53,025 nucleotides of DNA from an uncultured Candidatus Saccharibacteria bacterium (GTDB lineage: Bacteria; Patescibacteriota; Saccharimonadia; CAILAD01; JADZBC01), in contig CAYPSN010000002.1 of the NCBI GenBank assembly GCA_964413715.1, positions 66,850 to 119,874 on the forward strand. Reading direction: 5' to 3'. The notes under the pieces were generated by a model. The model was given only the letters and a program-made list of their open reading frames with translations. It had not been told where the DNA came from and made no database searches. How positions within the stretch are numbered: position 1 is the stretch's first letter; every line of letters begins with the position of its first letter. Below are positions 518 to 53,025 of the stretch, piece by piece. The translations under genes and the position numbers were made by a program.

Positions 518-649
518 CGAACGCTACCCAACAGTCAGCCTCGGCTGACAGATTGGAGGCGCCTATGCGCTTTCGAGGGTTGTGCGAGTGATCGTGCAGC
601 CCTGCGGCTGGCCTGATTCGGCCAACCCACTGCCCTTTCCTTCTCAACC

Positions 650-700
650 CACGTCATCAAATGTGTATTTGATCTGAAGAGTTCAAAAGAACGAAACGTG
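650..700 (+). ncRNA. Type III hammerhead ribozyme (HH8)
   Basis: CACGU-C (cleavage predicted after C655), stem I AUCAAA-UGUGUA-UUUGAU, CUGAAGA, stem II GUUC-AAAA-GAAC, GAAA, CGUG. All invariant core positions present. Small hairpin UGGCC/GGCCA at 609-624. Confidence 0.8.
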
Positions 701-711
701 AAAAGAAGAAT

Positions 712-8505: not shown

Positions 8506-10038
8506 TTATTTCCAGGACCAGGTGCTTTCTAAGGTGGAGACGGCGTTTTTAGTAAACTCGTCGTTCGATGACATATTAATTTCAAAACTCGTTATCGTGT
8601 CGCTATCAAGCTTGTATTTACTGTTTTTCAGTACGACCACTATCATTGTTTTATTCTGTGGCGCTTCTGTAGTACCGGCATTAAAGACTACCTCTTGTGC
8701 ATCAAAGCCACCGAGAGTAATTTTGCGCTCCGACACCGTGTTGGCAGCCGTAACTTTGTTTGCCTCCTTGGAAGCCGCTACTGCTTTATCTAGACTATCA
8801 ACTTTTGTTATCGATGGCAGCACAGCAATCGTACTTACACCTTGCGAACCAAATGTAGCATCAACTTTACACGCTGAATCATCGGTAGTTACGGTATTGT
8901 CGGTCGGGAGGGCAAATTCAAAACACTTCTTTACAACCGCTACGTAGCCGTCGGGCACAGTAATAGTGGCTTCGAGATTTGCCGAGTCAGACTGCTGTTG
9001 CTCACCCGAAAGCGAATCAGCTGGTACTTCCGTAACCGGTTTTCTACCAAGAATAAGAGCCAAAATAACGATGCCAAAAATCAAAACTGCTGCGCCAATT
9101 CCGACGGCCATTAACACGCCTTTGCCACCTTTGCCGCCAGAACTAGGCGTTGCGGCCATGAGAGCAGGATCGCTATAAGGATCAACTGCAGCTGCTTGAC
9201 CAGCATTTGGATCATCAAGCATGGATTGCAAAGTTGGATCAGTAGCAGCTTGCGGCACCTGGCCATCCATTCCTGGCGCCAACGGTGCACCCGTTACAGG
9301 ATCAATTGCTGTTTGCTCAACTGCGGGCGCAGGCATGGGTTCGGGCATAGCCGGTGCAGCTGGCATAGGTGCAGACTCAGGAGCGATTGGAGCCACAACT
9401 GGCTCGGGCTGAGCTACAGGGGCTTCCGTGGCCATAGGAACGGCCGGTACTGCAGAAGCGTCCATCTCGAGAGGATTAGGAGGCAATGGCTCTGGCGCAG
9501 CTGGGTATGACGTAGCTGGAGCTCCAACGCCAGTATCTTGGCTAGGATCATATGCCTGTGTTGCAGCCGGAGCCGGCATTGCATTTGCAGCGGCATCAGG
9601 CACTACGGGTGCAGCTGGCGCTACTGGTTGGCCTGGAGTAACTGGCACAGCTGGGTCTGGCATAGTTGGCGTTGGCGCTACTGCTTGGCCCGGCATAGCC
9701 TGACTATCGCCAGCCAAAGGTGCTGCGACTGGCGCAGCTTGCACGCTAGGATTCGTAAAGCCCGCCATTGGGTCAGGATTCTCGGCAGCCATATGCGCAT
9801 CAACCACTGCATCGGCTGGATTAGCGGCAGGCGCTGCTGCAGGAGATGCTGGGGCAGCAGGTGGAGTCAATTGGGCGTTTAAAGCGTCTTGGAGGGCTGA
9901 GCCCCCAGAAGCAGCAGGCGCTGTAGGCGCTGGCGTGGCCGCATACGTTGGCGGTATTTGGGCGTCTAGATTAGCTGGCTGGCTCGCACCGTCAGCTGGA
10001 GCATTATTCAATGGAGATTGTGGATCTTGTGGAGTCAT
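8506..10038 (-). CDS. Pro/Ala-rich membrane-anchored protein
   Basis: About 300 aa of P/A low complexity, one TM (GVLMAVGIGAAVLIFGIVILALILG), then a roughly 170-aa globular C-terminal region. Confidence 0.6.
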   Translation of the reverse strand: MTPQDPQSPLNNAPADGASQPANLDAQIPPTYAATPAPTAPAASGGSALQDALNAQLTPPAAPASPAAAPAANPADAVVDAHMAAENPDPMAGFTNPSVQAAPVAAPLAGDSQAMPGQAVAPTPTMPDPAVPVTPGQPVAPAAPVVPDAAANAMPAPAATQAYDPSQDTGVGAPATSYPAAPEPLPPNPLEMDASAVPAVPMATEAPVAQPEPVVAPIAPESAPMPAAPAMPEPMPAPAVEQTAIDPVTGAPLAPGMDGQVPQAATDPTLQSMLDDPNAGQAAAVDPYSDPALMAATPSSGGKGGKGVLMAVGIGAAVLIFGIVILALILGRKPVTEVPADSLSGEQQQSDSANLEATITVPDGYVAVVKKCFEFALPTDNTVTTDDSACKVDATFGSQGVSTIAVLPSITKVDSLDKAVAASKEANKVTAANTVSERKITLGGFDAQEVVFNAGTTEAPQNKTMIVVVLKNSKYKLDSDTITSFEINMSSNDEFTKNAVSTLESTWSWK

Positions 10039-11021: not shown

Positions 11022-12362
11022 ATGATGTATAATACAGACATGATTAAGCAAATAAAAAACACCCTTCGCCCTCTTGTACCCCGCGAAGCACTCAACAAAT
11101 ATCACTACCCCGAAGCTCGCCTAGCCCAGTTTAAACACAAAAATCCTTCTGAAAAGATGGTGATTATTGGCGTAGTCGGCTCCAAAGGCAAAACCACAAC
11201 TGCCAACATGATTTGGGCTGCCCTCAGCGCCGACGGCAGCAAGGTTGGTCAAATCGGCACGGCCAACATTCGCATCGGCGAGCGCGAAGAACTTAACCGC
11301 CACCACATGACCATGCCTGGCGCATTTATTCTGCAGGGCTACCTCAAGCGCATGCTCGCTGCACGCTGTAAGTACGTAGTTATGGAAGTGCCGAGCGAGG
11401 GCCAAACGCAATACCGCCACGTTGGCATCAACTTCGACGTACTCGTGTTTACCAACGTAACGCGCGAAATTATGGCAGCGCACCGCAACAGTATGGAGAT
11501 TCTCCACCAGCACAACAAGCGGGTGTTTGTACAGATGGCTCGATCCAAACACAAAATCTTAGGTGGCAAAAAAATTCCCAAAATCATTGTTTTTAATGCT
11601 GATGCTCACGATGCCCCTGCCTACTCTGGCTTTAAGGCTGATCAAAAAATCAGCTACAGTGTTAAATCCAATAGTGACTATAAGGCTGTTGACGTAACGT
11701 CCAACGCGAAAGGCATCGACTTTAAAGTCAACGGCCATCCTTATCACCTGGGTATTCTCGGTACCATTAATGTTAGTAATGCTGCTGGTGCTATCGCCAC
11801 CGCTTTTGCTCTTGGCAAAGACGGCAGCGCGATAGCTAAGGGCCTCTCGGGCTTGCAGGTTATTCCGGGCCGCATGGAAGTTATTAATGAAGGCCAGGAC
11901 TTTACCGTAATCGTTGACTACGCCCACGAACAAGTCAGTATGCAAGCACTCATGGACGGTGCAGCAGCAATGAAGCCGAAGGGAGCTAAAATCATCACCC
12001 TACTCGGTGCCGAAGGTGGCGGCCGAGACGTAGAAAAACGCCCCGAAATGGGCGCAATTGCAGCAAAAGGTTCGGACAGCATAATTATTTGTAACGTCGA
12101 CCCCTACAACGACAGGCCGATGCAAATTATCGAAGATATCGCCAAGGGAGCCGAAGAAGTTGGCGCCAAAATCGGCAAGAACATGTACTGTATCGAAGAC
12201 CGCCGCAAAGCCATTGCCAAGGCACTTAAGTTAGCCAAAAAGAACGACATTGTACTGATTACCGGCAAAGGCAGCGAGCAGTCCATGGTGATCGGTAGTA
12301 AAACAATCCCCTGGGACGACCGTGATGTTGTGCGCGAAGAGCTTAAAAAACTAAGTAAATAA
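11022..12362 (+). CDS. Mur ligase family protein (MurE-like)
   Basis: P-loop GVVGSKGKTTT, VDYAHE motif, C-terminal Mur-ligase-like region. 446 aa. Confidence 0.7.
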   Translation: MMYNTDMIKQIKNTLRPLVPREALNKYHYPEARLAQFKHKNPSEKMVIIGVVGSKGKTTTANMIWAALSADGSKVGQIGTANIRIGEREELNRHHMTMPGAFILQGYLKRMLAARCKYVVMEVPSEGQTQYRHVGINFDVLVFTNVTREIMAAHRNSMEILHQHNKRVFVQMARSKHKILGGKKIPKIIVFNADAHDAPAYSGFKADQKISYSVKSNSDYKAVDVTSNAKGIDFKVNGHPYHLGILGTINVSNAAGAIATAFALGKDGSAIAKGLSGLQVIPGRMEVINEGQDFTVIVDYAHEQVSMQALMDGAAAMKPKGAKIITLLGAEGGGRDVEKRPEMGAIAAKGSDSIIICNVDPYNDRPMQIIEDIAKGAEEVGAKIGKNMYCIEDRRKAIAKALKLAKKNDIVLITGKGSEQSMVIGSKTIPWDDRDVVREELKKLSK

Positions 12363-12892: not shown

Positions 12893-13429
12893 GTGCCTAC
12901 CCGCACCGTCACAGACAAGACCCTCGCCACGACCTTCATCAAGGAGGTCATCGACGAGCAAGCAGGCAACCTGACTCAGCTGCATATCTGGCCGAGTGAC
13001 GCCGATCGGCGCAAGAAGCGCTGCCGTCGTCACGTCGAGACCGAACTCGTGGCGTTCGCCCGTCTCGTCGCCGCCATGGCGATGAAGGCGCCGGCGCAAC
13101 GTCCCGACTTCAACAGCCGTACCTGGCAGAACGACTGGGCCAACGGCGCAGTCGATGCCATCAAGGCAGCTGGCTACGACCAGCTCGAGGACCAGACCGT
13201 CAAGACGATCATGCGTCGCTTCCCACGTCGCGTCACCGCCGAGGCGAGCTGGATCAAGATCAGCCTCCTCAAGATCGCTTCGTACACCGCGCAGGTGGCA
13301 AGGATGATCGAGCTTGGTCTTCCGCCGGAGATGCTACTCATGAGTCACGAACAGGCTCAGCTGCACATGATGGAGATGGCCTTGTCGATCCACAACAACG
13401 GTGGAAAAGTCGCGATCGTCGCGGCTTAG
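12893..13429 (+). CDS. GC-rich hypothetical protein (178 aa)
   Basis: GTG start 6 nt after AAGGAG. High GC3. No recognisable motif. Confidence 0.55.
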   Translation: MPTRTVTDKTLATTFIKEVIDEQAGNLTQLHIWPSDADRRKKRCRRHVETELVAFARLVAAMAMKAPAQRPDFNSRTWQNDWANGAVDAIKAAGYDQLEDQTVKTIMRRFPRRVTAEASWIKISLLKIASYTAQVARMIELGLPPEMLLMSHEQAQLHMMEMALSIHNNGGKVAIVAA

Positions 13430-13436
13430 CCCCTCG

Positions 13437-13488
13437 CCCCCGTCCGGGCATCAACGCATTACAAAAATGCGAAGAGCCCGGACGGGGG
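13437..13488 (+). terminator. Long GC hairpin terminator
   Basis: CCCCCGTCCGGGC (13437-13449) pairs with GCCCGGACGGGGG (13476-13488), inner GCATT/AATGC helix, then CTCTTCGTTT. Confidence 0.6.
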
Positions 13489-13507
13489 CTCTTCGTTTAA
13501 GTGAAGA

Positions 13508-21540: not shown

Positions 21541-22731
21541 ATGGATAGCAATACTCCCCTAGCCGAACAAATGCGCCCCAAACGTCTTGCTGATGTCATG
21601 GGGCAAAACCACTTACTCGGCGAAAACCAGTTTTTGCGAAGCGTGATAGAGCTTGGCAGGCCAACCAGCATGATTCTATGGGGGCCACCAGGCAGTGGCA
21701 AAACCACGCTAGCCCGCATTATCGCCACTGCAAGCGGATATGAATTCGAAGAAATCAGCGCGGTCACATCTGGACTGGCGGATGTCAAAAAAGTTATTGC
21801 GCGCGCCCAAGAGGCCAAGCAGGAAGATAAAAACTCCCTACTCTTTGTAGACGAGATTCATCGCTTCAATAAAGCCCAGCAAGATGCTTTTCTGCCTCAT
21901 GTAGAAAACGGCACCATCGTAATGATCGGCGCTACGACAGAGAACCCTAGCTTCGAGGTGATTGGCCCGCTGCTCAGCCGGAGTCGAGTGGTTGTACTCG
22001 AACCACTCAGTAAAGAAGATGTAGTCGCGATACTCAAGCGGGCAGCAAAGCAGTTAAAAGGCGTAAAGGTTAGCCCCAAAGCCATAGAGCTGTTGGCTTA
22101 TTTTTCAGGAGGCGATGCGCGCATGGCACTGACTGGTCTTGAAGCGGCGGCTGCGATTGAACACAAAAACATCTCGCCCGAAACCATCAAGCAAGCTATG
22201 CAGCAGAAAACAGCTCGATATGATAAAGGCGGCGAGTATCATTTCAATCTCATATCTGCCTACATTAAATCCATGCGCGGTGGTGACGCCGACGCTGCGC
22301 TATACTACCTGGCTCGCATGCTGGCTGGCGGCGAGGACCCTAAATTCATAGCTCGACGAATCGTCGTGTTTGCTAGCGAAGACATTGGCCTAGCTAGCCC
22401 TGGCGCACTCACCCTGGCGGTTTCTACCTTTCAAGCGGTAGAAAGAATCGGTATGCCCGAGTGTCAAATTGTACTCTCTCAGGCAACCATCACAATGGCA
22501 CGAAGTAAAAAGTCGCGCAGTAGTTATGACGCGATCATGGCGGCGAACCAAGCCGTACAGCAGCATCCAGACGCCCAAGTCCCATTGCATTTACGCAATG
22601 CCCCCACCAAGCTCATGAAGAATCTGGGCTACGGCAAAGACGCAAAGTGGGAAGCTGGCTACAAGCATCCAGATGGCTTCATACCCAAAGAACTTAAAAA
22701 CCAAAAAATCTACCCTGGCGAACCAGAATAG
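21541..22731 (+). CDS. rarA: Replication-associated recombination protein A (AAA+ ATPase, MgsA/RarA)
   Basis: Walker A GPPGSGKTT, Walker B LFVDEIHRFNKAQQD, MgsA C-terminal region. Confidence 0.9.
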   Translation: MDSNTPLAEQMRPKRLADVMGQNHLLGENQFLRSVIELGRPTSMILWGPPGSGKTTLARIIATASGYEFEEISAVTSGLADVKKVIARAQEAKQEDKNSLLFVDEIHRFNKAQQDAFLPHVENGTIVMIGATTENPSFEVIGPLLSRSRVVVLEPLSKEDVVAILKRAAKQLKGVKVSPKAIELLAYFSGGDARMALTGLEAAAAIEHKNISPETIKQAMQQKTARYDKGGEYHFNLISAYIKSMRGGDADAALYYLARMLAGGEDPKFIARRIVVFASEDIGLASPGALTLAVSTFQAVERIGMPECQIVLSQATITMARSKKSRSSYDAIMAANQAVQQHPDAQVPLHLRNAPTKLMKNLGYGKDAKWEAGYKHPDGFIPKELKNQKIYPGEPE

Positions 22732-22749
22732 ATTATAAGTTTTGAGCTT

Positions 22750-22772
22750 GCGGGGAGGCACTTCCTCCCCGC
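22750..22772. terminator. Bidirectional hairpin between convergent rarA and the GC-rich pair
   Basis: GCGGGGAGG-CACTT-CCTCCCCGC. Confidence 0.55.
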
Positions 22773-22782
22773 CGCTCAAGCC

Positions 22783-22902
22783 CTACTCGTTCCGAGAGAG
22801 CCACGCTTCGTGCGCCTTGGCGTCGACCCATGCCAAACCGACCACACCAGCCACAGCCCCGGCGACTGCCGTGACCAGCACAGCCACCATCCAGCGCCTC
22901 AT
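22783..22902 (-). CDS. 39-aa single-TM peptide, translationally coupled
   Basis: Not in the ORF track (too short). Its ATG overlaps the upstream stop as ATGA at 22899-22902. Sequence MRRWMVAVLVTAVAGAVAGVVGLAW. Confidence 0.4.
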   Translation of the reverse strand: MRRWMVAVLVTAVAGAVAGVVGLAWVDAKAHEAWLSRNE

Positions 22903-23498
22903 GAACTGAAGTCGCCTGGGAGGCGACCCGTCCGCCGGTACTCCTCGGCCATCCGTCGCTCAGCTGCGGCCCCGACGGCGTCGAAGTACGCACCATCCGA
23001 GAGCGGATCCCGACAGCGCCTCCCCCGACTCGGACCAATCCCGAGCACATCGTCAGCCGAAGCAGGCAAGAGCCCGGAGAACTGCCAGTCCCGTGGGCGG
23101 AATCGGTTTGCAGCAGATGGCCCGCCCCTGCCATCGAACACTTTGTGTTCGACCTGGTCGACGGCATCCCAGAACACCCAGTTGACGCCGAACAAGGTCG
23201 TCAGGCCGAACATCGCAGCCAGCCTGGGATGCCGGCGCACCACGCCGAGCAACGGCGAGAAGATCATGAACACAGCGCCCAAGATCGAACCGATGCCAAC
23301 CCAGACGCGCCTGCTGGGCTTGTCACTGCTGTAGTGACGGCCATGCCCTTCCGCCTCGCGCCTGGCAGACGCATCGGAGAACATGGCGATGAGCCAGAAC
23401 ACGACAGCCCCGATCAGGCTGCCCGCTGCAACTCGCATGAATTTCCGCACATTTCCCCCTAAGGTCTCGTTGATTGCGGTAGGCATATTTTGCACCAA
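22899..23498 (-). CDS. GC-rich membrane protein, unknown function
   Basis: 199-aa ORF with hydrophobic helices (LIGAVVFWLIAMF, VGIGSILGAVFMIF). The true start may be the internal GTG/ATG near 23450, where GC content rises. Confidence 0.5.
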   Translation of the reverse strand: MVQNMPTAINETLGGNVRKFMRVAAGSLIGAVVFWLIAMFSDASARREAEGHGRHYSSDKPSRRVWVGIGSILGAVFMIFSPLLGVVRRHPRLAAMFGLTTLFGVNWVFWDAVDQVEHKVFDGRGGPSAANRFRPRDWQFSGLLPASADDVLGIGPSRGRRCRDPLSDGAYFDAVGAAAERRMAEEYRRTGRLPGDFSS

Positions 23499-23527
23499 TA
23501 CTGCTTGTTATTCAAGCATAAGGAGAC

Positions 23528-35918: not shown

Positions 35919-35946
35919 AAGGCCCAGAGTCGTAACCCTGGGCCTT
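35919..35946 (+). terminator. Hairpin after pmbA
   Basis: AAGGCCCAG...CTGGGCCTT. Weak U tract. Confidence 0.45.
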
Positions 35947-36091
35947 AAACCCTCCTGCGATGCCGGTCTACAACCAACTCAGATAGCCGTCGCATCGGCT
36001 AGTACACTATCCCCCTGTACTGGGGTCACTGCCATTATGTTGCCTGGCTGCAGTGAGGTGATTCTTTCAAATCTGCCACGGGCCAAGGCCC

Positions 36092-36409
36092 TCAGAACCG
36101 CGTGCTGCACTCCTTGGGGAGCATCAGCACGTCGCCCTTGTTGAACTTCTCCTTGCCGTAGACGCCGCTACGCTGGATGATGAGTCGCCGCCAGGCCTGG
36201 AGCGTCTCGCGCGCCGGTTTGGTCGTCTTGGCGAACTCATCGAGCGTCAGGGGCGTCTGGAGCGTCACCTTGGCCTGGCAGGCGTAGCGGTCGTTCAGCG
36301 AGTTGCCGTTCATGGCGTGGCTGACGGCTCCGCAGCTTGTCAGGACGAAGACGAGGAGCATTGCCGCAGTAACCGCGCGGCGCCGATGAGGGTTGATGTT
36401 GGTGTTCAT
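36092..36409 (-). CDS. GC-rich putative lipoprotein (105 aa)
   Basis: Start moved to MNTNINPHRRR. Signal peptide with lipobox LTSC (AAMLLVFVLTSCGA). Confidence 0.55.
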   Translation of the reverse strand: MNTNINPHRRRAVTAAMLLVFVLTSCGAVSHAMNGNSLNDRYACQAKVTLQTPLTLDEFAKTTKPARETLQAWRRLIIQRSGVYGKEKFNKGDVLMLPKECSTRF

Positions 36410-36798
36410 CTTTGAATGCACATAGATACACTCAAAGACGAACACCACTCACATGCTTCACCCCACCGCAGCACTCATCTACATAAGTGCTCTGGTAGGG
36501 CCACCGAGGATTTCTCCTCGATGGTACTCACCCTCCCGCGATACCGACTAGCTTTTTTTCACTAGTCGACTTCTGTTGCCAGGCCGTCGCTACGACCCCG
36601 GAAACCCTGTTAGGGAGTCCCCACCAAGACCGGCAGATCCGGAGTGAGTCCGAAGAGGACTCGCACCTTCTCCACCGGCGGCGGGACTGGTCCGAAGACC
36701 GTTCCAATTTCCCGTGCGTCGTCACCCGCAAGAACAAGCCAGGGATAACCCCGACTCACCCTTGGGGAACGGCCGCCCGGTGTGCGGTAGCACATCAT
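36410..36798 (-). ncRNA. Structured GC-rich non-coding segment immediately 3' of ssrA (tmRNA-related fragment?)
   Basis: No credible ORF. Many helices. 15-nt exact copy (36570-36584) of a tmRNA segment (36996-37010), flanked by a compensated helix (CGAC/GTCG versus CCGC/GCGG). Confidence 0.4.
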
Positions 36799-36799
36799 C

Positions 36800-37163
36800 G
36801 TGGAGCTGGAGGGAATCGAACCCTCGTCCACCAGGTAGCAAACTTACTCGCTACGACCATTCCTGGTTTTGAACTTTGCAGCAGTTCGAGGGCCAGGTCA
36901 CTTGTACTGTGCTTGCGCGCAGCCAGCTGCCAAGTCTTTCCTTGAAGTCACTGTACTTTCACAGTGTCAGCGGTCTATCCCTGCTGTCTTCTCCGCTTCT
37001 GTTGCCAGGCTGCGGTGAATCGGCCCCGAATCTAAGCTTTTTACGGCCCTTTTCGTAACCTTCGCTATCAGGCGGCGGTTATGAGTTTGCCCTGTTTTAC
37101 GAGTCTGAGCAACTCGGGTCGCAAGTAAGCTAGCTAGTCCCGATGTCGAAACCAGTCAGCCCC
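36800..37163 (-). ncRNA. ssrA: tmRNA (SsrA)
   Basis: 5' GGGGCUGACUGGUUUCGAC, 3' GGACGAGGGUUCGAUUCCCUCCAGCUCCA. Acceptor stem has a G3-U pair. Candidate tag frame GGC AAA CUC AUA ACC GCC GCC UGA UAG. Terminal CCA not fully encoded (CGA). Confidence 0.9.
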
Positions 37164-37172
37164 TAGGGCGCG

Positions 37173-37406
37173 TTACAGATAGCCAGCCAAGGTACGCGCA
37201 TCCTCGGCATCGTGGTGGTCCGACTGAGCGGCGGCACAGGCGTGCCCGGTCTCATGCCCGATGTCGAAACCAGCCTCGAAGATGAGGTACATCGTTTCCA
37301 TCAGCGACAGTCCCTGAGCTCGGGCTTCGACCAACAAGGCCTGAACCGTGAGCTCTACCGCTTCCTCGAAAACTTCTTCCGACATTTCCTCGGGGGTGAT
37401 GGACAT
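37173..37406 (-). CDS. Small acidic hypothetical protein (77 aa)
   Basis: ATG 37406 preceded by GGGAGGAAGG. Stop lies 9 nt before the tmRNA 5' end. Confidence 0.5.
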   Translation of the reverse strand: MSITPEEMSEEVFEEAVELTVQALLVEARAQGLSLMETMYLIFEAGFDIGHETGHACAAAQSDHHDAEDARTLAGYL

Positions 37407-37515
37407 AAGCCTTCCTCCCACGCTATGGAGTTGCGATTCAACTCCCCGGCGGGAGGCATCCGCCTCTTACCTCCGGCTGAGGAGTTGAATGGTGTGCGGC
37501 TTGTAAAAGTGCTCT

Positions 37516-37569
37516 GATAGTTTCGTCGTTTCCGACTCATCAGCCCGGACATACATCCGAGGACTATCC
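37516..37569 (-). ncRNA. Type III hammerhead ribozyme (HH6)
   Basis: Minus strand: GGAUAGU-C, stem I CUCGGA-UGUAUG-UCCGGG, CUGAUGA, stem II GUCG-GAAA-CGAC, GAAA, CUAUC. Cleavage predicted after C at 37562. Confidence 0.8.
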
Positions 37570-38733
37570 ACTCACGAACTCACAATGGAGCTCGCGAGCG
37601 ACCCTGGGGAGCCTCTGCAGGTTTTTTAAACCGTGCAAAGTCTACAACCCAGGGAAGGATTGTCCGGCTTTCACTCGATGGAGTGACCCGGAGCGGCTTA
37701 CCTTCGGCCGCGGCGTGATTGCGTTCGCTTCGGAGGGCACATTGGTTTTCAGGCCGCTGTGTCCGGGGTGACGAAACGCACTTTCAGCTAGTGAAGTTAA
37801 CCCCAGATCATTTGTTGATTTCCTACCGCTCTCGCGGTCGCGCGCCCATGTTGGGCCCAACACGTCGAGGTTTATACTCCTCGCAGGCTGATCTCTTCTC
37901 CTCTTCTGCCGTTATCCTCTTCCCGGGCTTGTTCCGGTCTACGCGGGCCTCCCCTGGGAGGCCAAAGGGCGACTTTACTAGCATCGAATCTGGGAGCTGC
38001 ACACTCGCGTGGCGCTCACCATGAGATGGGGGCTGGTAAAGCTAGGTCAGCTCTTTACCATGTCGGACTTCATACCACGCGTGCAAGCGTAGCCGACTTT
38101 GACCACAGATGCTGGTTTTACCCAGCTTAGGGGGATCCCCCCTGAGCACTCTGCAGCACCCTTATCCTCAGTCGTCTTCTTGGCATCCACCCCGGCCAGG
38201 GCTTCAACCATGCTGCGGGGCTATCCGCAGCTCCCTCTTTTCAGATTGGGCTTGCCAGGCCCAAACCTTGAGGTATGGCCCGACGGCGACTGATTTCCTG
38301 CCCTTTGCCTGAAGCACGTTTGTACGTGATCCGGACTCCCATGAATGGCGGGCAGGTGGCCTTGACTCTTAGCTTGCGGCTTCGAGCTGTACCACCATTC
38401 TTTTCCGATACACCTGCCTTGGCGGGCAGAATATACCACTAACTTCGTCAGCCCCGCCAAGGACCGCGATACTTGCTAAATGCGTTGGATCCTACCAAGA
38501 GGCACACTGTCACAAGCATGGAGATTTAAATGATGCCTATGGCATCACTCTGCAAAACACCGGGAGTAGGTGCGTTGCATATCATCCCTCGCGGGACTGT
38601 CAGGCTCTCCACAGCCAGGGTGCTGGGTGTTCTGTCTTGCTGTGATGTAAATATTTACAGAACCCAGCGCCTTGACTGTTGAGAACCTTTGACGATTATT
38701 TTGTAACGTTCTATGCAGTTGTTATCTGCACTG
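37570..38733 (-). ncRNA. Large (about 1.16 kb) GC-rich ORF-less structured RNA candidate
   Basis: Lies between promoter 38740-38768 and HH6. Only short Arg/Pro/Gly-rich ORFs. Numerous long helices, for example CCUUGGCGGG/CCCGCCAAGG (38413-38461) and CUGGGUUCUGU/ACAGAACACCCAG (38618-38663). Confidence 0.45.
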
Positions 38734-38739
38734 TTGAGT

Positions 38740-38768
38740 ACTATACACATTAGTCTATTTTTTGTCAA
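38740..38768 (-). promoter_or_regulatory. Consensus sigma70 promoter for the ssrA-containing transcript
   Basis: Minus strand TTGACA (38768-38763), 17-nt spacer, TATAGT (38745-38740). Confidence 0.6.
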
Positions 38769-38884: not shown

Positions 38885-38913
38885 ATAACAAAAAAGACCC
38901 TTAGTCGGGTCTT
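38885..38913 (-). terminator. Intrinsic terminator (strong on the minus strand)
   Basis: AAGACCC-GACUAA-GGGUCUU followed by UUUUGUUAUAAAAAG on the minus strand. Confidence 0.7.
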
Positions 38914-39346
38914 GATTGTGATGATTGCTTTGTGGGTGGTCGGGGTGGTGCGGATCCATGCGGATCCGCACCACCCTCGACCTTATCAACGAACCCCTGC
39001 TGCTTCAACTACGCTTGGACAGCGCGCGCCTAGTTGCCTTGTGGCTTGCGGCGTTTGACAGCATGGAGAGTTGGCCCTGACTTGACCAGGGCATGGGCGA
39101 CCTTGTATTCAGTAGCCCCAACTGCGTTGGTTAACCAACGTGGAGTCGTGGCCTAGATGCCATCTCCCATGTATTTACCTCCTGGTTCGCCCTGGTAAGG
39201 GCTGGATGTGGTGCCCTTCGTTGAGTTCGGGGGAGCGAGCATTGCCCGCTCCCCCTCGCTCCAGCCGCCCCCAACAGGGGGATGTTAGAAGGATTACAGA
39301 CCCTCTCCCATGACTTCCCCCTTGGGTAGATCGGCAACGATAGGCA
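38914..39346 (-). ncRNA. About 430-nt GC-rich ORF-less transcript candidate bounded by a promoter and a terminator
   Basis: Promoter 39353-39381 and terminator 38885-38913. Contains a 14-bp perfect hairpin GGTGGTGCGGATCC/GGATCCGCACCACC (38946-38977). Only spurious-looking ORFs. Confidence 0.5.
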
Positions 39347-39352
39347 CTTAAT

Positions 39353-39393
39353 ATGATATCAGATTGTTTCAAATTTGTCAAATAATATTGACT
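39353..39393 (-). promoter_or_regulatory. Sigma70 promoter within a TGTCAA-N6-TTGAC inverted repeat
   Basis: Minus strand TTGACA (39381-39376), 17-nt spacer, TATCAT (39358-39353). Inverted repeat 39376-39393 directly after the TrmB-like gene stop. Confidence 0.6.
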
Positions 39394-42036: not shown

Positions 42037-42126
<90 letters not shown>

Positions 42127-42156
42127 CGAACTGGTATAGTTTAGCCGAAAACCAGG

Positions 42157-42936
42157 TTATTTTCTAGACTTGCCGCTACCAGCGTTCGCGCTTGCAACTC
42201 CTGTTTTTACCAATGTAAAAATCTGCTTCATTGCCTCGGCTATCTGTGGGCTCTCTATAATCGTACCGATAACTTCTTCGCCGTATGAAATCAGTGCGGT
42301 TTTGTTGCCATACACATATAGGTTCACAGGCGCCGTAAAGGCTTCGCGCGGCGCCCAGGCCATGTCTCGGAGCATTGCTTTGTCATGTTCACGACCGTAG
42401 CGGATATTATCTTCTTCAGCCGGTTCTATACCGTGCGCTTTTATACCCAGTTTGGCCCGCTGCTCCATGTGCTTGTACAAATCTTTGCCCAACACGTTAA
42501 AGTCAGCATCCGAGCGGATAAAGTAAATGTCTTTACCCGTCCTACGCTGGTCTTCGTACATCTTTATAATCCCTTCTTTACCCTGGAAGAAGCGCACGCC
42601 AGGCTGATGCTGATAGGTGTAGAAGTAATTCAGTAGCTGCGGCATGCTGTCTCGCACCAGTTTTTCGGTAGCAAGAATCTCCTTACGTTTTTCTTCGATA
42701 AGTCGCTCTAAATTTGTGGGGTTGGCGGGATGATAACTCAGCTTTTTGCCAGATTCATCCTTCTCAACAAGACCTAGTGCGCACAACTTGTCGAGAATCA
42801 TATAACAATTTGTACGTGTTTCACCAATCTTTTCAGCCAACTCTGGGGGTGTTAAATCACCAAACTTTATAAGCGTAATATATGCTTTTGCCTGGCTTTT
42901 GGTTAAGCCTATTTGTTGTAAGAGTTCTGCATTCAT
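42157..42936 (-). CDS. TrmB-family transcriptional regulator (paralog 2)
   Basis: IGLTKSQAKAYITLIKFGDLTPPELAEKIGETRTNCYMILDKLCALGLV wHTH. 259 aa. Confidence 0.8.
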   Translation of the reverse strand: MNAELLQQIGLTKSQAKAYITLIKFGDLTPPELAEKIGETRTNCYMILDKLCALGLVEKDESGKKLSYHPANPTNLERLIEEKRKEILATEKLVRDSMPQLLNYFYTYQHQPGVRFFQGKEGIIKMYEDQRRTGKDIYFIRSDADFNVLGKDLYKHMEQRAKLGIKAHGIEPAEEDNIRYGREHDKAMLRDMAWAPREAFTAPVNLYVYGNKTALISYGEEVIGTIIESPQIAEAMKQIFTLVKTGVASANAGSGKSRK

Positions 42937-43272: not shown

Positions 43273-43316
43273 CGAGGCAACAAGGTAAACGGGGCGGTAC
43301 CTACAAACCCGCCCCC

Positions 43317-43373
43317 CTGACTCGGAGAGTAACGCGCTCTCCCTGACGATGACCGCGCACGGTCGAAAGTCAG
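43317..43373 (+). ncRNA. Type III hammerhead ribozyme (HH1) preceded by a hairpin
   Basis: CUGACU-C (cleavage after 43323), stem I GGAGAG-UAACGCG-CUCUCC, CUGACGA, one extra U, stem II GACCG-CGCA-CGGUC, GAAA, GUCAG. Hairpin GGGGCGG/CCGCCCC at 43291-43315. Confidence 0.8.
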
Positions 43374-43397
43374 CCGCACCTTGAACCAAGGAGAACA

Positions 43398-44003
43398 ATG
43401 AGCACCCCAGCCCTACTGAAAGTCGTCCTGACGGGCGGTCCCTGCGCCGGAAAGACCACGGTCTTCCGCCGCATCGAGCAAGAGTACGGACACCTGGTAA
43501 CGCTGGTGCCCGAAGTAGCCACCATGCTGCTCTCGAGCGGCTACCCCATGCCCGGACGCGACCTCGACTGGTCGCCCGGCTGGCGAGACAGCTTCCAGCG
43601 AGCCATCGCCACGGTCCAGGAAGAGGTAGAGGCGGCCTACGAAATGCGAGCTAAGGAGCGAGGTCACCGCCTCCTCCTGACCGACCGAGGCCTGATGGAC
43701 GGAGCGGCCTACTACGACAGCCGAGCTGAGTTCCTGAGCGCAACCGGAATCGACCATGGCACTGCCCTGGCTCGATACCAGGCGGTCATCCACCTCGAAT
43801 CCGTCGCCATCGCTCAGCCGGAGCTCTACTCGAAGGGCAACAACCCCTTCCGCTTCGAGACACTTGAGGAGGCCATCCCTCTCGAGGCCAAAACCCGAAG
43901 CGCTTGGGCTGGCCACCCACAGCACACCATCCTGGAGGGCGCCGACCTCGACTACAAGGTTAGCGGTACGCTCAGGGTGCTCGCGGCCTACCTGCAGGCA
44001 TGA
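43398..44003 (+). CDS. P-loop NTPase/kinase-like protein (AAA_28/NadR-kinase-like)
   Basis: Walker A GGPCAGKTT. Roughly 200-aa single-domain P-loop protein. RBS AAGGAG. Confidence 0.65.
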   Translation: MSTPALLKVVLTGGPCAGKTTVFRRIEQEYGHLVTLVPEVATMLLSSGYPMPGRDLDWSPGWRDSFQRAIATVQEEVEAAYEMRAKERGHRLLLTDRGLMDGAAYYDSRAEFLSATGIDHGTALARYQAVIHLESVAIAQPELYSKGNNPFRFETLEEAIPLEAKTRSAWAGHPQHTILEGADLDYKVSGTLRVLAAYLQA

Positions 44004-44041
44004 GCAGTGCAAGGTTCCGGGAGGTCCTTTAAAAACCTCCC

Positions 44042-44094
44042 CTGACTCGCGGAGTGAGTGCTCCGCCTGACGAGCCGGAAACGGCGAAAGTCAG
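44042..44094 (+). ncRNA. Type III hammerhead ribozyme (HH2) preceded by a hairpin
   Basis: CUGACU-C (cleavage after 44048), stem I GCGGAG-UGAGUG-CUCCGC, CUGACGA, stem II GCCG-GAAA-CGGC, GAAA, GUCAG. Hairpin GGGAGGU/ACCUCCC at 44019-44041. Confidence 0.85.
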
Positions 44095-44117
44095 TCCGCA
44101 CCTTGAAGGAGGCTTAC

Positions 44118-44696
44118 ATGCCCACTGAACCGAACAACCCTATCGACGAGATCTTCATCTCGGTCGATATCGAGTGCGACGGGGACATCCCCGGCGACTA
44201 CTCGATGCTCAGCATCGGGGCCACTACCCTCGGCAACAGGTACGATCGCGACTTCTACGTCGAACTCCGGCCCATGACCGAACGGTACAACCCCGACAGC
44301 CTGGCAGTAGCCAGCCTGGACCGCACTCGTCTGCTCCGCGAGGGAGTGCCAGCTCAGGTAGCGATGGCTCGGTTTGCAGCCTGGATCGAGGAAGTCCGCG
44401 GACTCCATGGAGACGCCAAAGCGGTGTGTGTCACTCTCAGCGAGTGGGATAACGGCTGGCTCTACTGGTACTTCGTCCACTTCCTGGGCCAAAAGCCCCT
44501 CGGCTTCACCGGCATCGACATCAAGAGCTACTTCATGGGCAAGCATGACCTGAAGGAGTTCGCGGGCACACCCCGAACCGAGATGCTGAAGCACTACCCG
44601 AGTGAGATCGAGCACACGCACAACGCGCTCGACGACGCCCGGGAGCAAGCCGAGATCTTCTGGGCAATGTACCGAGCCCAGCCTCCACAGGCCTAA
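44118..44696 (+). CDS. DEDDh 3'-5' exonuclease (DnaQ-like fold)
   Basis: ExoI SVDIECDG, ExoIII HNALDDAREQA. ATG 44118 after GAAGGAGG. Confidence 0.75.
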   Translation: MPTEPNNPIDEIFISVDIECDGDIPGDYSMLSIGATTLGNRYDRDFYVELRPMTERYNPDSLAVASLDRTRLLREGVPAQVAMARFAAWIEEVRGLHGDAKAVCVTLSEWDNGWLYWYFVHFLGQKPLGFTGIDIKSYFMGKHDLKEFAGTPRTEMLKHYPSEIEHTHNALDDAREQAEIFWAMYRAQPPQA

Positions 44697-44738
44697 GAGA
44701 CACAGAGGTAACCGGGGTGGTACCTACAAACCCGCCCC

Positions 44739-44791
44739 CTGACTCGCGGAGTGAGTGCTCCGCCTGACGAGCCGGAAACGGCGAAAGTCAG
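44739..44791 (+). ncRNA. Type III hammerhead ribozyme (HH3) preceded by a hairpin
   Basis: Ribozyme sequence identical to HH2 (cleavage after 44745). Hairpin GGGGUGG/CCGCCCC at 44714-44738. Confidence 0.85.
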
Positions 44792-44816
44792 TCCGCACCT
44801 TGAACTAAGGAGACCG

Positions 44817-45119
44817 ATGAGAATCGTTCGTCAAGGATCTATCCCGCCCGACCGCAACATCCAGCGAGGAACTTGCAGGCACTGCGGCACAGTGGTGGAA
44901 GCCAACATAACCACTGAGTGCAACCGGCGTACAACGACCAGGGACATTTACACTGATTATGACCCGGATGGACGACCGCCCTACTACTACAGCAAGACTG
45001 TCACGACCGAATACTTTGAGACGGGTTGTCCAGTCTGCTCAAGGCCAATCTGTGTATCCTCGAGGGAAATCTCGAGTACCCATCGGCCGGATGCACCAAA
45101 AGAAAAGTGGAGCATGTAG
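44817..45119 (+). CDS. Small zinc-ribbon-like protein (100 aa)
   Basis: CRHC...CPVC cysteine pairs. ATG 44817 after AAGGAG. Confidence 0.5.
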   Translation: MRIVRQGSIPPDRNIQRGTCRHCGTVVEANITTECNRRTTTRDIYTDYDPDGRPPYYYSKTVTTEYFETGCPVCSRPICVSSREISSTHRPDAPKEKWSM

Positions 45120-45161
45120 GTAGGCGCACAAGGTTCCGGGAGGTCCTTTCAAAACCTCCCC

Positions 45162-45216
45162 CGACTCGGAGAGTAATGCGCTCTCCCTGACGATGACCGC
45201 GCACGGTCGAAAGTCG
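45162..45216 (+). ncRNA. Type III hammerhead ribozyme (HH4) preceded by a hairpin
   Basis: CGACU-C (cleavage after 45167), stem I GGAGAG-UAAUGCG-CUCUCC, CUGACGA, extra U, stem II GACCG-CGCA-CGGUC, GAAA, GUCG. Hairpin GGGAGGU/ACCUCCC at 45138-45160. Confidence 0.8.
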
Positions 45217-45247
45217 GTATACTGTATAATCTACGAAAAGGAGTTGC

Positions 45248-45883
45248 ATGACCGCACAAGTTATTACCATCGATGGAGGCGCTGGCGTAGGTGGCAGCAC
45301 CACGGCCGAAGCACTAAGTAAGGCACTCGGCTGCGAACACCTCAACGTCGGTGAAATCTACCGCGCCCTCACCTTCGAACTGGTTAGCCTCGGCTGGACG
45401 AAGAAGCAGATTATGAGCTCACCCATGCTGGCGGCCGAGCTGGCGGCCGGATTCAAGCTACAGATTGCTAACGGCAGCGTGGCTAGCGTGAATGGTCAAG
45501 ATTGCCAAGGCAAGCTACACGCAGCAGAAATCAGCAAGCTGGTTCCGACTGTTGCGGCCATTCCCGAGATGCGAGCTACCGCCAAGAAGGTAGAGAAGAA
45601 CTTCATTGCAACTCGGCCACTCAGCATCATCGAGGGTCGAGCGGGCGCCTGGAGTATCCCGCAAGCAGTGCTAAAAATCTGGCTGCATTGCGATCCAGAA
45701 ATCGCCGCCAAGCGGCGCGGCTGCACCGTAGCAGAGATCCTGGAGCGCAACCTAGCGGATGCTACACGCGAGCACTCGCCTATGATCAAGCACCCAGATG
45801 CAGTCGCCATCGACACGGGCAAGCTACTCCCGGCCGAGATTGTGCAGCGCATCACGCAGCTCTACCGCGAACTGGCAGAATGA
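45248..45883 (+). CDS. Cytidylate kinase-like P-loop kinase
   Basis: ITIDGGAGVGGST...LNVGEIYRAL resembles the Cmk N-terminus (IDGPxxxGKST...DTGxxYRA). P-loop Lys replaced (GVGGST). TATAAT at 45225-45230 upstream. Confidence 0.6.
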   Translation: MTAQVITIDGGAGVGGSTTAEALSKALGCEHLNVGEIYRALTFELVSLGWTKKQIMSSPMLAAELAAGFKLQIANGSVASVNGQDCQGKLHAAEISKLVPTVAAIPEMRATAKKVEKNFIATRPLSIIEGRAGAWSIPQAVLKIWLHCDPEIAAKRRGCTVAEILERNLADATREHSPMIKHPDAVAIDTGKLLPAEIVQRITQLYRELAE

Positions 45884-45927
45884 CGCGGACAGCTAGGTTC
45901 CTGGGGAGTCCTACCAAAACTCTCCCC

Positions 45928-45977
45928 CGATTCAGCAGATTATGTCTGCTCTGATGAGCCAAGCATGGCGAAAATCG
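45928..45977 (+). ncRNA. Type III hammerhead ribozyme (HH5) preceded by a hairpin
   Basis: CGAUU-C (cleavage after 45933), stem I AGCAGA-UUAUG-UCUGCU, CUGAUGA, stem II GCCA-AGCA-UGGC, GAAA, AUCG. Hairpin GGGGAGU/ACUCUCC at 45903-45925. Confidence 0.85.
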
Positions 45978-45995
45978 GTTATAGTTAGGAGAATA

Positions 45996-50894: not shown

Positions 50895-51356
50895 GTTGAG
50901 TACCGCCAACCAGTTGATGAGGATCTGCGACAGACGGCGCTCGGCCACTTTGCCAATGCCCGGGCTGCTGCTTTCACGACTACCTGCCACATTGAGTGTT
51001 AGGATGTCGTTCTCCACCAGCCAGCCTACCACCTCAACCGGGTCGCACTTGTGGAGCAGGTTCACTACGAGACACGGCTTGCCCTGTTCGTTGGCCACGT
51101 TACGAGTCAGCTTTGAGCCACCGCGCAGCGAACCACGAACAAGGATCAGCGTACCGTCGGACTCACACACATTCCTGCGTGTGCGCTGCCGGTAGCCCGA
51201 ACTCGGAGTCTCTTTGACAGAGTATTTGTCCGAAATCTGACCACGCTCGTTGTAGCGTCCCTTCGGCACCCAGCCGCCCGTTGGTATGCCCAGCTTGATG
51301 GCTGCATCCAGAGCCGCTTTGTCTACGCCGGTTTGAGCACCGCTAACGATCTTCAC
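50874..51356 (-). CDS. YpsA/'MoCo-carrier'-type SLOG-family protein
   Basis: IVSGAQTGVDKAALDAAIKLGIPTGGWVPKGR signature. GTG 51356 after AAGGGAGG. Overlaps the upstream ORF end by 14 nt. Confidence 0.65.
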   Translation of the reverse strand: MKIVSGAQTGVDKAALDAAIKLGIPTGGWVPKGRYNERGQISDKYSVKETPSSGYRQRTRRNVCESDGTLILVRGSLRGGSKLTRNVANEQGKPCLVVNLLHKCDPVEVVGWLVENDILTLNVAGSRESSSPGIGKVAERRLSQILINWLAVLNKPVPNI

Positions 51357-51939
51357 GGCGCCTCCCTTTGTAGAGCTGCATGTCGCCATCCTGGCCCAGC
51401 ACGTAGACTGGCAGCCCATCGTAGAACAACGAGGCCTTGGCCAACCCGACAATTACGTCGGGGTCGGGGTAGATTCTCGACCACCGAGTCGCCCTATTCT
51501 CAAGGACGAGTGGCCAGAACTCTCCCCAGTAGGCTTCCCCCTGATCCTCTTCCGCCAGCTCTTCCTCGAGCGGGTCTACGGACATGTCGTCCAAGCCTGA
51601 AAGTGCTTCGACATCGCAGTCGAACCCGGTGACACCACCTTCTTCGGCAATTCGCATCCTCAGATCGAAGAGCTCCGGGTCGTCGCCAACTACGACGGCG
51701 TAGACACGGCCTGCACCGCTCTGGATTCGTGAATCCAGGCGGCCGAACCACACACCGAACATGTCGAGCCACGACATGACACAGGCCTCGTGCGGCGCCA
51801 CCAGCTCGATGCCCTCCCCGCCGTGATCGACCGCGGGCAGAGTGACGACGGTTGGGCGCCGTTCCCGCAACTTCGCGCACAGAAACGCGAACTTCTTGAC
51901 TGGTACGTTGCCAATGACGACGATGATGTCGCGCATCAT
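51343..51939 (-). CDS. GC-rich hypothetical protein (about 198 aa)
   Basis: Start at tandem ATG ATG (51939 or 51936) after AAAGGAGGA. No motif recognised. Confidence 0.5.
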   Translation of the reverse strand: MMRDIIVVIGNVPVKKFAFLCAKLRERRPTVVTLPAVDHGGEGIELVAPHEACVMSWLDMFGVWFGRLDSRIQSGAGRVYAVVVGDDPELFDLRMRIAEEGGVTGFDCDVEALSGLDDMSVDPLEEELAEEDQGEAYWGEFWPLVLENRATRWSRIYPDPDVIVGLAKASLFYDGLPVYVLGQDGDMQLYKGRRREDR

Positions 51940-51987
51940 TCCTCCTTTGTAAAGAGCGTGAATTGGGCCTTCCAACTCAACGTGCAG

Positions 51988-52016
51988 ATTATACAAACTT
52001 TATGTATTTTTGTCAA
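51988..52016 (-). promoter_or_regulatory. Perfect-consensus sigma70 promoter for the GC-rich two-gene operon
   Basis: TTGACA (52016-52011), 17-nt spacer, TATAAT (51993-51988). Confidence 0.65.
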
Positions 52017-52837: not shown

Positions 52838-52851
52838 CTAAATAGTGTGAT

Positions 52852-52904
52852 GCAACTTTCGTCCTTTTGGACTCATCAGAATAACCCGACAGTTATTGAG
52901 TTGC
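52852..52904 (-). ncRNA. Type III hammerhead ribozyme (HH7) preceded by a UUCG-capped hairpin
   Basis: Minus strand: GCAACU-C (C at 52898), stem I AAUAAC-UGUCGG-GUUAUU, CUGAUGA, stem II GUCC-AAAA-GGAC, GAAA, GUUGC. A 10-bp hairpin CACCCCGGGC-UUCG-GCCUGGGGUG at 52905-52928 lies immediately 5' on that strand. Confidence 0.8.
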
Positions 52905-53025
52905 CACCCCAGGCCGAAGCCCGGGGTGAGGAGTTTATGTGGCTTACTCCTGTGCCTGCGTAGCTGGGGTAGCTACTTGTTGTGTTGCGGCTTAGTTGCC
53001 GCTGCTGTCCACGATGACGGGGGTC

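Follow-up and report, generated by a model that had tools for sequence, protein, structure and literature searches.

The window analyzed here, a stretch of 53,025 nucleotides (nt) from an uncultured Candidatus Saccharibacteria bacterium (positions 66,850 to 119,874 of contig CAYPSN010000002.1, assembly GCA_964413715.1), contains a gene for transfer-messenger RNA (tmRNA; ssrA) that is probably an internal module of a single conserved unit of approximately 2.8 kilobases (kb), which runs on the minus strand from a promoter to a hairpin (38733 to ~35920) in one clade of Saccharibacteria. This one unit of a tiny genome would combine a structured RNA of about a kilobase with a predicted self-cleaving ribozyme, the tmRNA and three small genes. 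The GroEL protein encoded in the window is 84-85% identical to those of Candidatus Saccharimonadia metagenome-assembled genomes, and PolA, DnaG and RpoD (an RpoD-type sigma factor gene is located at 4485-5606) are encoded there as well, indicating that the window belongs to a cellular Saccharibacteria chromosome. The 3.7-kb region around the unit is 99.97-100% identical in contigs of three assemblies, including an assembly from a different study, which excludes a one-off misassembly and also means that no sequence variation is gained from these contigs.

The ssrA-containing unit in related genomes

Related loci were collected through homologues of three proteins, namely the adjacent PmbA-like protein and the products of two open reading frames (ORFs) of the unit, ORF-A and the lipoprotein ORF-C (Table 1), and were compared as far as the contigs reach. 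This comparison of ssrA neighborhoods, proposed in an earlier reading made from the letters of the window (hereinafter, the sequence-only reading), covered about 10 Saccharibacteria lineages with a common neighborhood, TldD/PmbA on one side and TrmB on the other (loci L206, L204/L205, L210, L203, L222, L228, L230, L231/L232 and L233), and revealed one conserved unit. Searches with short patterns contributed little: PmbA patterns yielded nothing useful in the GTDB genomes, a 20-mer from the leader matched only the L204 contig in GTDB, and the six matches of a leader 19-mer in JGI metagenomes were all unrelated.

Table 1. Features of the unit in the window
Feature	Position	Strand	Description
Sigma-70-type promoter, TTGACA-N17-TATAGT	38740-38768	-	11 of 12 consensus positions; nearest promoter-like site upstream of the tmRNA on this strand
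Large structured RNA, ~1.17 kb	37563-38733	-	5' and 3' domains align across five lineages
Large RNA, conserved 5' domain	~38733-38600	-	
Large RNA, variable middle	~38600-37990	-	
Large RNA, conserved 3' domain	~37990-37570	-	
Type III hammerhead HH-A	37515-37569	-	RF00008, 43.9 bits, E 2e-6; predicted cut after GUC, 37562/37561
Leader	37407-37514	-	long hairpin and Shine-Dalgarno (SD) sequence (GGGAGG) of ORF-A; conserved in L206, L204, L210, L230, L232 and L233
ORF-A, 77 amino acids (aa)	37173-37406 (ATG 37406, TAA 37175-37173)	-	motif G-H-E-x-G-H-x-C-A; C-terminus AGYL
tmRNA gene	36798-37163	-	RF00023, 104.6 bits (gathering score 47), E 7e-40
Tag reading frame GCC GCC UGA UAG (Ala-Ala-stop-stop)	37065-37076	-	canonical resume position
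ORF-B, 62 aa (MMCYRTPGG...PDLPVLVGTP)	36610-36798	-	ATG 2 nt past the tmRNA discriminator base; no SD sequence
Spacer with conserved segment (GTCGTAGCGACGGCCTGGCAACAGAAGT)	36413-36609	-	in relatives ends in a second hammerhead, HH-B
ORF-C, predicted lipoprotein, 106 aa	36092-36412 (ATG 36412, stop 36092)	-	putative signal peptide and lipobox LTSC; G+C at third codon positions (GC3) 0.89
3' element ending in hairpin AAGGCCCAG...CTGGGCCTT (35946-35919)	35919-36091	-	kept in L204, L206, L210, L203 and L230

The order of modules is the same in all lineages: promoter, large RNA, HH-A, leader hairpin, optional ORF-A, optional tmRNA or its remnant, ORF-B, spacer, optional HH-B, lipoprotein gene and a 3' element with a hairpin. 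A single conserved promoter, located within a conserved AT-rich stretch, heads the unit in seven lineages; its -35 hexamer is invariant, and the -10 hexamer is TATAGT, TAATAT or TAACAT (L206, L204, L210, L203, L230 and L233). In relatives with contigs long enough to include it, the promoter again matches 11/12 positions. The sequence-only reading had singled out this site (38768-38740) as the nearest consensus promoter, and with its 11/12 match, it is indeed the only strong one on the minus strand. A scan that registers near-consensus sigma-70 sites only detected no site with at least 9 of the 12 positions on the minus strand of the window between 38740 and 37163, and nothing promoter-like in L206 between the conserved promoter and the tmRNA or in L230 between this promoter and the tRNA-like-domain version of the tmRNA. 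On the minus strand, a terminator scan from the 38768 promoter down to 35800 found no terminator-like site. The 3' hairpin is the likely end of the unit, which there converges with the gene for the PmbA-like protein. The block occupied by the unit has a GC content of 56-59%, compared to ~46% in the backbone, in agreement with the sequence-only reading.

The junctions on both sides of the tmRNA are tight. As previously stated from the letters, the 5' end of the tmRNA (37163) lies 9 nt past the stop codon of the 77-aa ORF-A (TAA, 37175-37173); the corresponding gap, measured to the 5' end of the tmRNA or of its tRNA-like-domain version, is 10 nt in L231 and 8 nt in both L233 and L230, and the spacer motif CGCGC.C is kept at three of these four junctions (window, L231 and L233). 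Downstream, the ATG of the next ORF follows 2 nt past the discriminator base in the window as well as in L230. In L206, from which a 273-nt segment carrying ORF-A is absent, a conserved 90-nt leader alone separates the tmRNA from the hammerhead, and 13 nt at the junction are non-homologous. Thus, the claim that there is no room for a dedicated tmRNA promoter holds, as ORFs abut both ends of the gene and no promoter-like or terminator-like site adjoins it. A stand-alone ssrA gene is recognizable by a promoter within ~100 nt upstream and a terminator downstream, and neither is seen at this gene.

Given the lack of a visible promoter of its own, the single conserved promoter, the tight junctions and the L206 leader that abuts the tmRNA, by far the simplest reading of these sequences is that the tmRNA would be co-transcribed from the 38768 promoter. 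The composite transcript described in the sequence-only reading is well supported by the anatomy, the conserved promoter and the tight junctions, but not in every detail: the 390-nt stretch after the tmRNA holds an ORF, and the housekeeping character ascribed to the tmRNA is doubtful, as discussed below.

The tmRNA and its reduced relatives

Standard tmRNA finders miss this gene; ARAGORN made no tmRNA call in the window or in L206. The tRNA-like domain is intact, with a 7-base-pair acceptor stem that includes G3:U70, a T arm and the discriminator base A; the acceptor pairs (alignment columns 15-21/417-423) include a GU in all eight aligned sequences. The pseudoknots PK1-PK4 and the helix-2 architecture are kept as well, whereas helix 5, near the end of the tag, is broken in both the window and L206. 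CCA is not encoded, and the 3' end reads ...CUCCA-CG. The window tmRNA is 91.6% identical to the L206 copy. Compensatory changes are found at 39 of the 99 consensus pairs in an alignment of eight tmRNAs; the pairs are kept in the window and in L206, which share many G-C to A-U double changes compared to Actinomycetota-type tmRNAs. Judging by this alignment, the pattern indicates purifying selection acting on the tRNA-like domain and the pseudoknots.

The tag reading frame is extremely short. The tmRNAs of the window and L206 were aligned with six Actinomycetota-type tmRNAs for which ARAGORN calls tags of 9-10 codons (e.g., ANSDDLALAV and AKTDDLALAA). Both have the 3' strand of PK1 (GGGCAA) and the spacer of ~10 nt as in the other tmRNAs, followed by two sense codons, so that the frame is 24 nt shorter. 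A regular tag would have about eight or more codons, start ~10-12 nt past PK1 and have a hydrophobic end, which is not what the window tmRNA encodes; among the nine comparison loci scanned with ARAGORN, tags were called in eight. A search of GTDB with a pattern for the short tag produced two matches, both by chance. No smpB gene was found in the 53-kb window or in the related loci, which make up a small part of each genome, and no second tmRNA was seen within the window.

The relatives show a series of reduced forms. In L231/L232, the ORF-A homologue is followed by an 80-nt RNA that consists of the tRNA-like domain and is predicted to fold cleanly, with the acceptor stem GGGGCUG/CAGCUCC, a hairpin-closed helix 2 and a T arm. 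The mini form in L230 has 82 nt and a degenerate acceptor strand, GAAGCUG (Rfam score of 52.1 bits over model positions 1-374), and in L233, all that is present between ORF-A and ORF-B is a 23-nt 5' stub. At the corresponding position in L204/L205, L210, L222, L228 and L203, there is no tmRNA. Because tmRNAs or their remnants are found in both subclades, as defined by lipoprotein similarity, it is likely that the unit originally contained a full tmRNA, which was then shortened or lost on several occasions. We also considered a recent insertion of the tmRNA and rejected it in view of the tRNA-like-domain remnants in the distant subclade. With a two-codon tag, no ARAGORN call and reduced or missing versions in relatives, it is doubtful that this is the housekeeping RNA that the sequence-only reading took it to be.

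The other modules of the unit

The large RNA that opens the unit produced no match in an Rfam scan up to an E-value of 10. Its middle part is absent in L203, comprises ~370 nt of a different sequence in L204/L210 and ~620 nt in the window and L206. For the 3' domain, the RNAalifold consensus of four sequences includes compensatory changes at 9 of 115 pairs, for example, CCGG/CCGG to CUAG/CUAG. A 984-nt tract of this RNA (38720-37737, minus strand) is 100% identical to L206, while the neighboring protein genes are 65-69% identical; L204 and L206 (77%) are nearer to each other than either is to the window. This tract reflects either a recent exchange between co-occurring Saccharibacteria or the collapse of near-identical sequences by the assembler; genomes of both types, that of the window and that of L206, are present in the sample ERZ27309396. 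A second case of complete identity to L206 is tRNA-Ser(GGA) with 47 nt of flanking sequence (42037-42170, minus strand), where the surrounding genes are ~75% identical. Upstream of the large RNA, at 38894-39381 (minus strand), there is a small-RNA-like unit of ~450 nt with its own promoter (TTGACA-17-TATCAT, 11/12) and an intrinsic terminator; it has no Rfam match and holds two SD-preceded five-codon ORFs (39311-39294, MGEGL; 39170-39153, MGDGI). L230 and L233 have comparable units, likewise with tiny ORFs, ahead of their large RNA.

The hammerhead that had been placed upstream of the tmRNA in the sequence-only reading was identified as type III at 37515-37569 on the minus strand. It has a canonical core, CUGAUGA...GAAA, three helices with stem III open, and GUC at the cleavage site (model alignment positions 1-54). 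Across seven lineages, 99.1% of the alignment cells are paired and 5 of the 16 pairs are changed on both sides; none of 500 shuffles reached the covariation score, and all three helices are supported. The arrangement with a hammerhead directly upstream of a ribosome-binding site recurs at HH-B, which is present in relatives and has no counterpart in the window. It is also repeated five times at 43.3-46.0 kb, in intergenic modules of ~100 nt (43275-45990, plus strand) in which a hairpin is followed by a type III hammerhead and then by the SD sequence and ATG of the next ORF; they separate GC3-rich ORFs (AAA_28, an unknown ORF, a 122-aa ORF, cytidylate kinase and CYTH), include two identical segments (44039-44107 and 44736-44804) and are not found at the corresponding position in L204 or L206. 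Two further hammerhead-like motifs are located at 642-704 (plus strand; core CUGAAGAG) and 52849-52911 (minus strand), the latter of which is kept in L206 (21075-21137, minus strand), upstream of groES.

The leader has two mutually exclusive predicted folds, CAACUCC...GGAGUUG and GGAGUUG...CAACUCC. In the second, CCUCCCGCC pairs with the SD sequence of ORF-A and masks it; as modeled, this pair of folds may constitute a translational switch.

All three proteins encoded in the unit have homologues in the relatives. ORF-A, with GC contents of.67/.38/.71 at codon positions 1/2/3, appeared to be an orphan in a word-indexed protein search, a result that was overturned by a full HMMER scan, which detected two 79-aa homologues (46-48% identity; E 2e-9 and 3e-8), both in the corresponding position of the locus and both with the G-H-E-x-G-H-x-C-A motif and the C-terminus AGYL. 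From these alignments, ORF-A is a member of a real, if rare, family with an HExxH motif. Its predicted structure is a two-helix hairpin (predicted local distance difference test score of 79); sequence and fold searches against the PDB gave no significant match, and neither ORF-A nor ORF-C belongs to a Pfam family. An exact 17-nt direct repeat (CTGGTTTCGACATCGGG) connects ORF-A (37257-37273) with positions 9-25 of the tmRNA (37139-37155, minus strand), with zero such repeats expected by chance. The repeat segment in ORF-A encodes AGFDIG, which fits the pattern of the ORF-A family, and an origin of ORF-A from a duplicated tmRNA fragment was dropped after the family alignment showed this fit.

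Homologues of ORF-B are located behind the mini-tmRNA of L231 and behind the 5' stub of L233, and another small ORF takes this place in L230. Accordingly, the "390 nt of structured RNA" that the sequence-only reading saw after the tmRNA (385 nt to the lipoprotein ORF) is not all non-coding, containing as it does this conserved 62-aa ORF. We had also considered this stretch as a decayed remnant of a small ORF present in L204; the L231 and L233 homologues show that it is instead an intact ORF, a variant in another frame. As in the sequence-only reading, an ORF for a predicted lipoprotein lies at the end of the implied transcript; it runs from the ATG at 36412 to the stop at 36092 and has the putative lipobox L-T-S-C (general pattern [LVI][ASTVI][GAS]C). 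By eye, its N-terminus reads MNTNINPHRRR-AVTAAMLLVFV-LTSC in the window, with LAGC in L204, and its homologues (60-88% identity) occur in syntenic loci only. The GC3 of all ORFs of the unit is 0.71-0.89, compared to 0.43-0.49 in native genes.

The 3' element is present in L206 (12068-12220) despite the lipoprotein gene being missing there, and one of its motifs, GGUUGUAGAC, is also found in the 3' domain of the large RNA. L206 contains two more promoter-driven, GC-rich structured units in the interval from the 3' element to PmbA (11300-12060, minus strand), both of which end in a similar hairpin (GGCCGAGAAUACAAUUCUCGGCC) and have no counterpart in the window. Other GC-rich islands (58-62% GC, against the 46% backbone) are located at 9500-10000, 13000-13500, 22500-23500 and 51000-52000; the ORFs 8506-10038, 12893-13429 and 22899-23498 in these islands have no Pfam match.

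Proposed model, alternatives and precedents

Taken together, these features suggest the following model. RNA polymerase would start at the conserved TTGACA-N17-TATAGT promoter and transcribe through the 1.17-kb structured RNA. The hammerhead would then cut after the GUC at 37562 and free the large RNA, which would end in a 2',3'-cyclic phosphate. The downstream RNA, comprising ORF-A, the tmRNA, ORF-B and the lipoprotein gene, would begin with a 5'-OH, and the ribozyme fold together with the leader hairpin would cap this end. In the downstream RNA, the tmRNA would act as a tRNA-like punctuation mark: ribonuclease P (RNase P) would cut its 5' end, 9 nt past the ORF-A stop, and the 3' end would be made by a 3' endonuclease or an exonuclease, together with the CCA-adding enzyme, leaving ORF-B almost leaderless. 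If active in ribosome rescue, this tmRNA would rescue with essentially no degradation tag. Clustered hammerheads have been found to cut polycistronic bacterial RNAs to gene-length pieces in vitro (PMC3088659).

Several observations weigh against this model. Failure to find a consensus promoter in GC-rich DNA is poor evidence, because such DNA seldom matches AT-rich hexamers; with ~0.4 promoter-like sites expected in 1.6 kb of GC-rich DNA, this absence alone is statistically unremarkable, and it is the conservation of the 38768 promoter and the tightness of the junctions, rather than missing hexamers, that make the case for a composite unit. No T run immediately follows the stem of the terminal hairpin, and the terminator scan passes over this hairpin. 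The 43.9-bit score of HH-A is below the Rfam gathering score of 48.5 (its homologues score 37.6-48.1 bits), and in L206, the core reads CCGAUGA where the window has CUGAUGA, a U4-to-C change. Finally, in view of the two-codon tag and the decay series in relatives, the tmRNA may no longer be functional. With regard to the ribozyme, core changes in hammerheads generally lower activity (PMC3088659). The change in L206 would be expected to reduce cleavage, and if so, cleavage is not essential for tmRNA expression in that lineage. RNase P is needed for the 5' ends of all tmRNAs. Given that the predicted HH-A cut is ~400 nt upstream of the tmRNA, that RNase P would still be required, and given the L206 core change, HH-A is unlikely to be a step of tmRNA maturation. 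Hence, of the processing through a ribozyme-bearing precursor envisaged in the sequence-only reading, the presence of the ribozyme upstream in the implied transcript stands, but a contribution to tmRNA maturation is improbable. It appears more likely, from the arrangement of the modules, that HH-A would uncouple the fate of the large RNA from that of the downstream messages and standardize the 5' end of the latter.

Among the alternatives, the one to be taken most seriously, which we nevertheless regard as doubtful, is that this copy of the tmRNA is a decaying relic or a mere processing signal, the tRNA-like shape of which would supply RNase P and 3'-processing sites that separate the ORF-A and ORF-B mRNAs, with a working ssrA, if any, located elsewhere in the genome. 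The two-codon frame that escapes ARAGORN, the broken helix 5 in the window and L206, the lack of smpB in the loci surveyed and the series of 80-nt, 82-nt and 23-nt forms leading to complete absence in the other relatives (L204, L210, L222, L228 and L203) all fit a relic. However, almost every helix is preserved in the tmRNAs of the window and L206 by many compensatory G-C to A-U changes, and so purifying selection would have acted on the full RNA after the divergence from the nearest relatives; moreover, G3:U70, the T arm and PK1 are intact, and no second tmRNA was seen in the 53 kb of the genome that the window covers. The tmRNA could also have its own, unrecognised promoter, for example, inside ORF-A, and be transcribed independently of the upstream RNA and hammerhead. 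ORFs can contain promoters, the scan was limited to near-consensus sigma-70 sites, and the 273-nt ORF-A segment that L206 lacks could carry signals of its own. We consider this quite unlikely, given that no site of at least 9/12 exists between 38740 and 37163 on the minus strand, that the 90-nt leader of L206 equals the leader of tmRNA-less loci and has no promoter-like site, that L230 has none either, and that the genuine promoters at this locus are near-perfect consensus sequences in AT-rich DNA.

A further possibility is that the GC-rich block, together with the tmRNA, is of foreign origin, acquired from an actinobacterial host or with a mobile element that integrates at ssrA. Saccharibacteria live on Actinomycetota. 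The tmRNA shares 61-69% identity with 26 Actinomycetota-type tmRNAs, as opposed to 37-51% with Bacteroidota ones, with a 35-nt PK1 segment identical to those of two comparison loci (L136 and L161), and the elevated GC3 of the block and the 984-nt tract shared by lineages with 65-69% identical flanking genes point in the same direction. We nonetheless find a foreign origin unlikely. The unit occupies the same chromosomal position in ~10 lineages, with the tmRNA or its remnants in both subclades, and hence is old in the clade, and its flanks are conserved in relatives without the tmRNA. A genomic island at ssrA would comprise an integrase and a bounding repeat of the ssrA 3' end, and the unit has no integrase and no direct repeat of that end, the sole repeat being the 17-mer from the 5' part; there are also no matches in phage or viral collections. 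In addition, the tmRNA forms a long branch that is sister to the cluster of sampled Actinomycetota rather than nested within it, and the comparison set includes no ordinary Saccharibacteria tmRNA, so that the resemblance may be vertical; the sequences do not separate an ancient transfer from vertical descent. An artefact of metagenome assembly, that is, a chimeric join through shared sequence, is extremely improbable. Two related genomes do coexist in ERZ27309396, the contig of the second one breaks just past PmbA (L208), and the identical 984-nt tract could confuse an assembler, but the 3.7-kb region is virtually identical in the three assemblies from more than one study, and independent lineages found in NCBI, JGI, ENA and Logan data have their modules in the same order.

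Combining the proposed unit with the reduction series, one can tentatively, and with considerable doubt, envisage that this clade keeps its only ssrA beside the gene for a small HExxH protein, in an operon punctuated by hammerheads, and sheds tagging stepwise (two-codon tag, tRNA-like domain only, loss), with the tmRNA doubling as RNase P punctuation for the flanking mRNAs. If this is true, these loci provide a natural series of tag-less bacterial tmRNAs.

Parts of this arrangement have precedents. Genes for tRNA and tmRNA that are co-transcribed with mRNAs and released by RNase P are known from operons of the thrU-tufB type in Escherichia coli, from smpB-ssrA neighbors and from the tRNA punctuation model of mitochondria. 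The Saccharibacteria unit resembles these in that a tRNA-shaped RNA with no visible promoter of its own lies within a few nt of coding sequence and its release would set the ends of mRNAs. In many of the Actinomycetota genomes compared (L096, L102, L113, L132, L151 and others), smpB precedes ssrA by ~100-400 nt and has the same orientation; a tmRNA close behind a protein gene thus has a natural precedent. In the window, by contrast, the upstream gene encodes the 77-aa HExxH protein and the downstream ORF starts 2 nt past the discriminator base, and the implied transcript differs from those of the tRNA-mRNA operons in that it also bears a predicted self-cleaving ribozyme and a large non-coding RNA.

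In bacteria, tmRNA is regarded as nearly universal, and the tag frame as one of its defining features. A structurally conserved Ala-Ala tmRNA, along with bare tRNA-like domains in relatives, would be a natural test of whether rescue without tagging suffices. A reduced tmRNA without the mRNA-like domain is mentioned for the mitochondrion of the jakobid Reclinomonas americana (PMC1168896). The two cases are alike in keeping the tRNA-like domain while the tag frame is lost or minimal, and differ in that the former is organellar whereas the present series is found in free-standing bacterial genomes.

The closest parallel for the ribozymes is with the clustered hammerheads that flank genes in polycistronic transcripts of bacteria and prophages (Perreault et al. 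2011, PMC3088659), which, like those described here, are of type III, located between cistrons in the same orientation and expected to divide a long RNA into segments of gene length; the units of the relatives carry two (HH-A and HH-B), and the window has a second array, the five modules at 43.3-46.0 kb. Unlike these clusters, the Saccharibacteria unit occupies a conserved chromosomal site without an integrase or prophage context, its first product is a 1.17-kb non-coding RNA, and a tmRNA is among its downstream modules. A literature search for hammerheads in connection with Saccharibacteria or with tmRNA found nothing, and the combination of a large RNA, a hammerhead, tmRNA punctuation between small genes and a reduction series appears to be undescribed. 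With this locus, the roles known for bacterial hammerheads would reach beyond prophage mRNAs and include a chromosomal operon that mixes non-coding and coding RNA. It is also a natural counterpart of the synthetic ribozyme insulators, such as RiboJ. In both, a hammerhead and a hairpin located just upstream of the ribosome-binding site would make the 5' end of the mRNA independent of the upstream transcript; unlike RiboJ, HH-A is natural, conserved and follows a long structured RNA.

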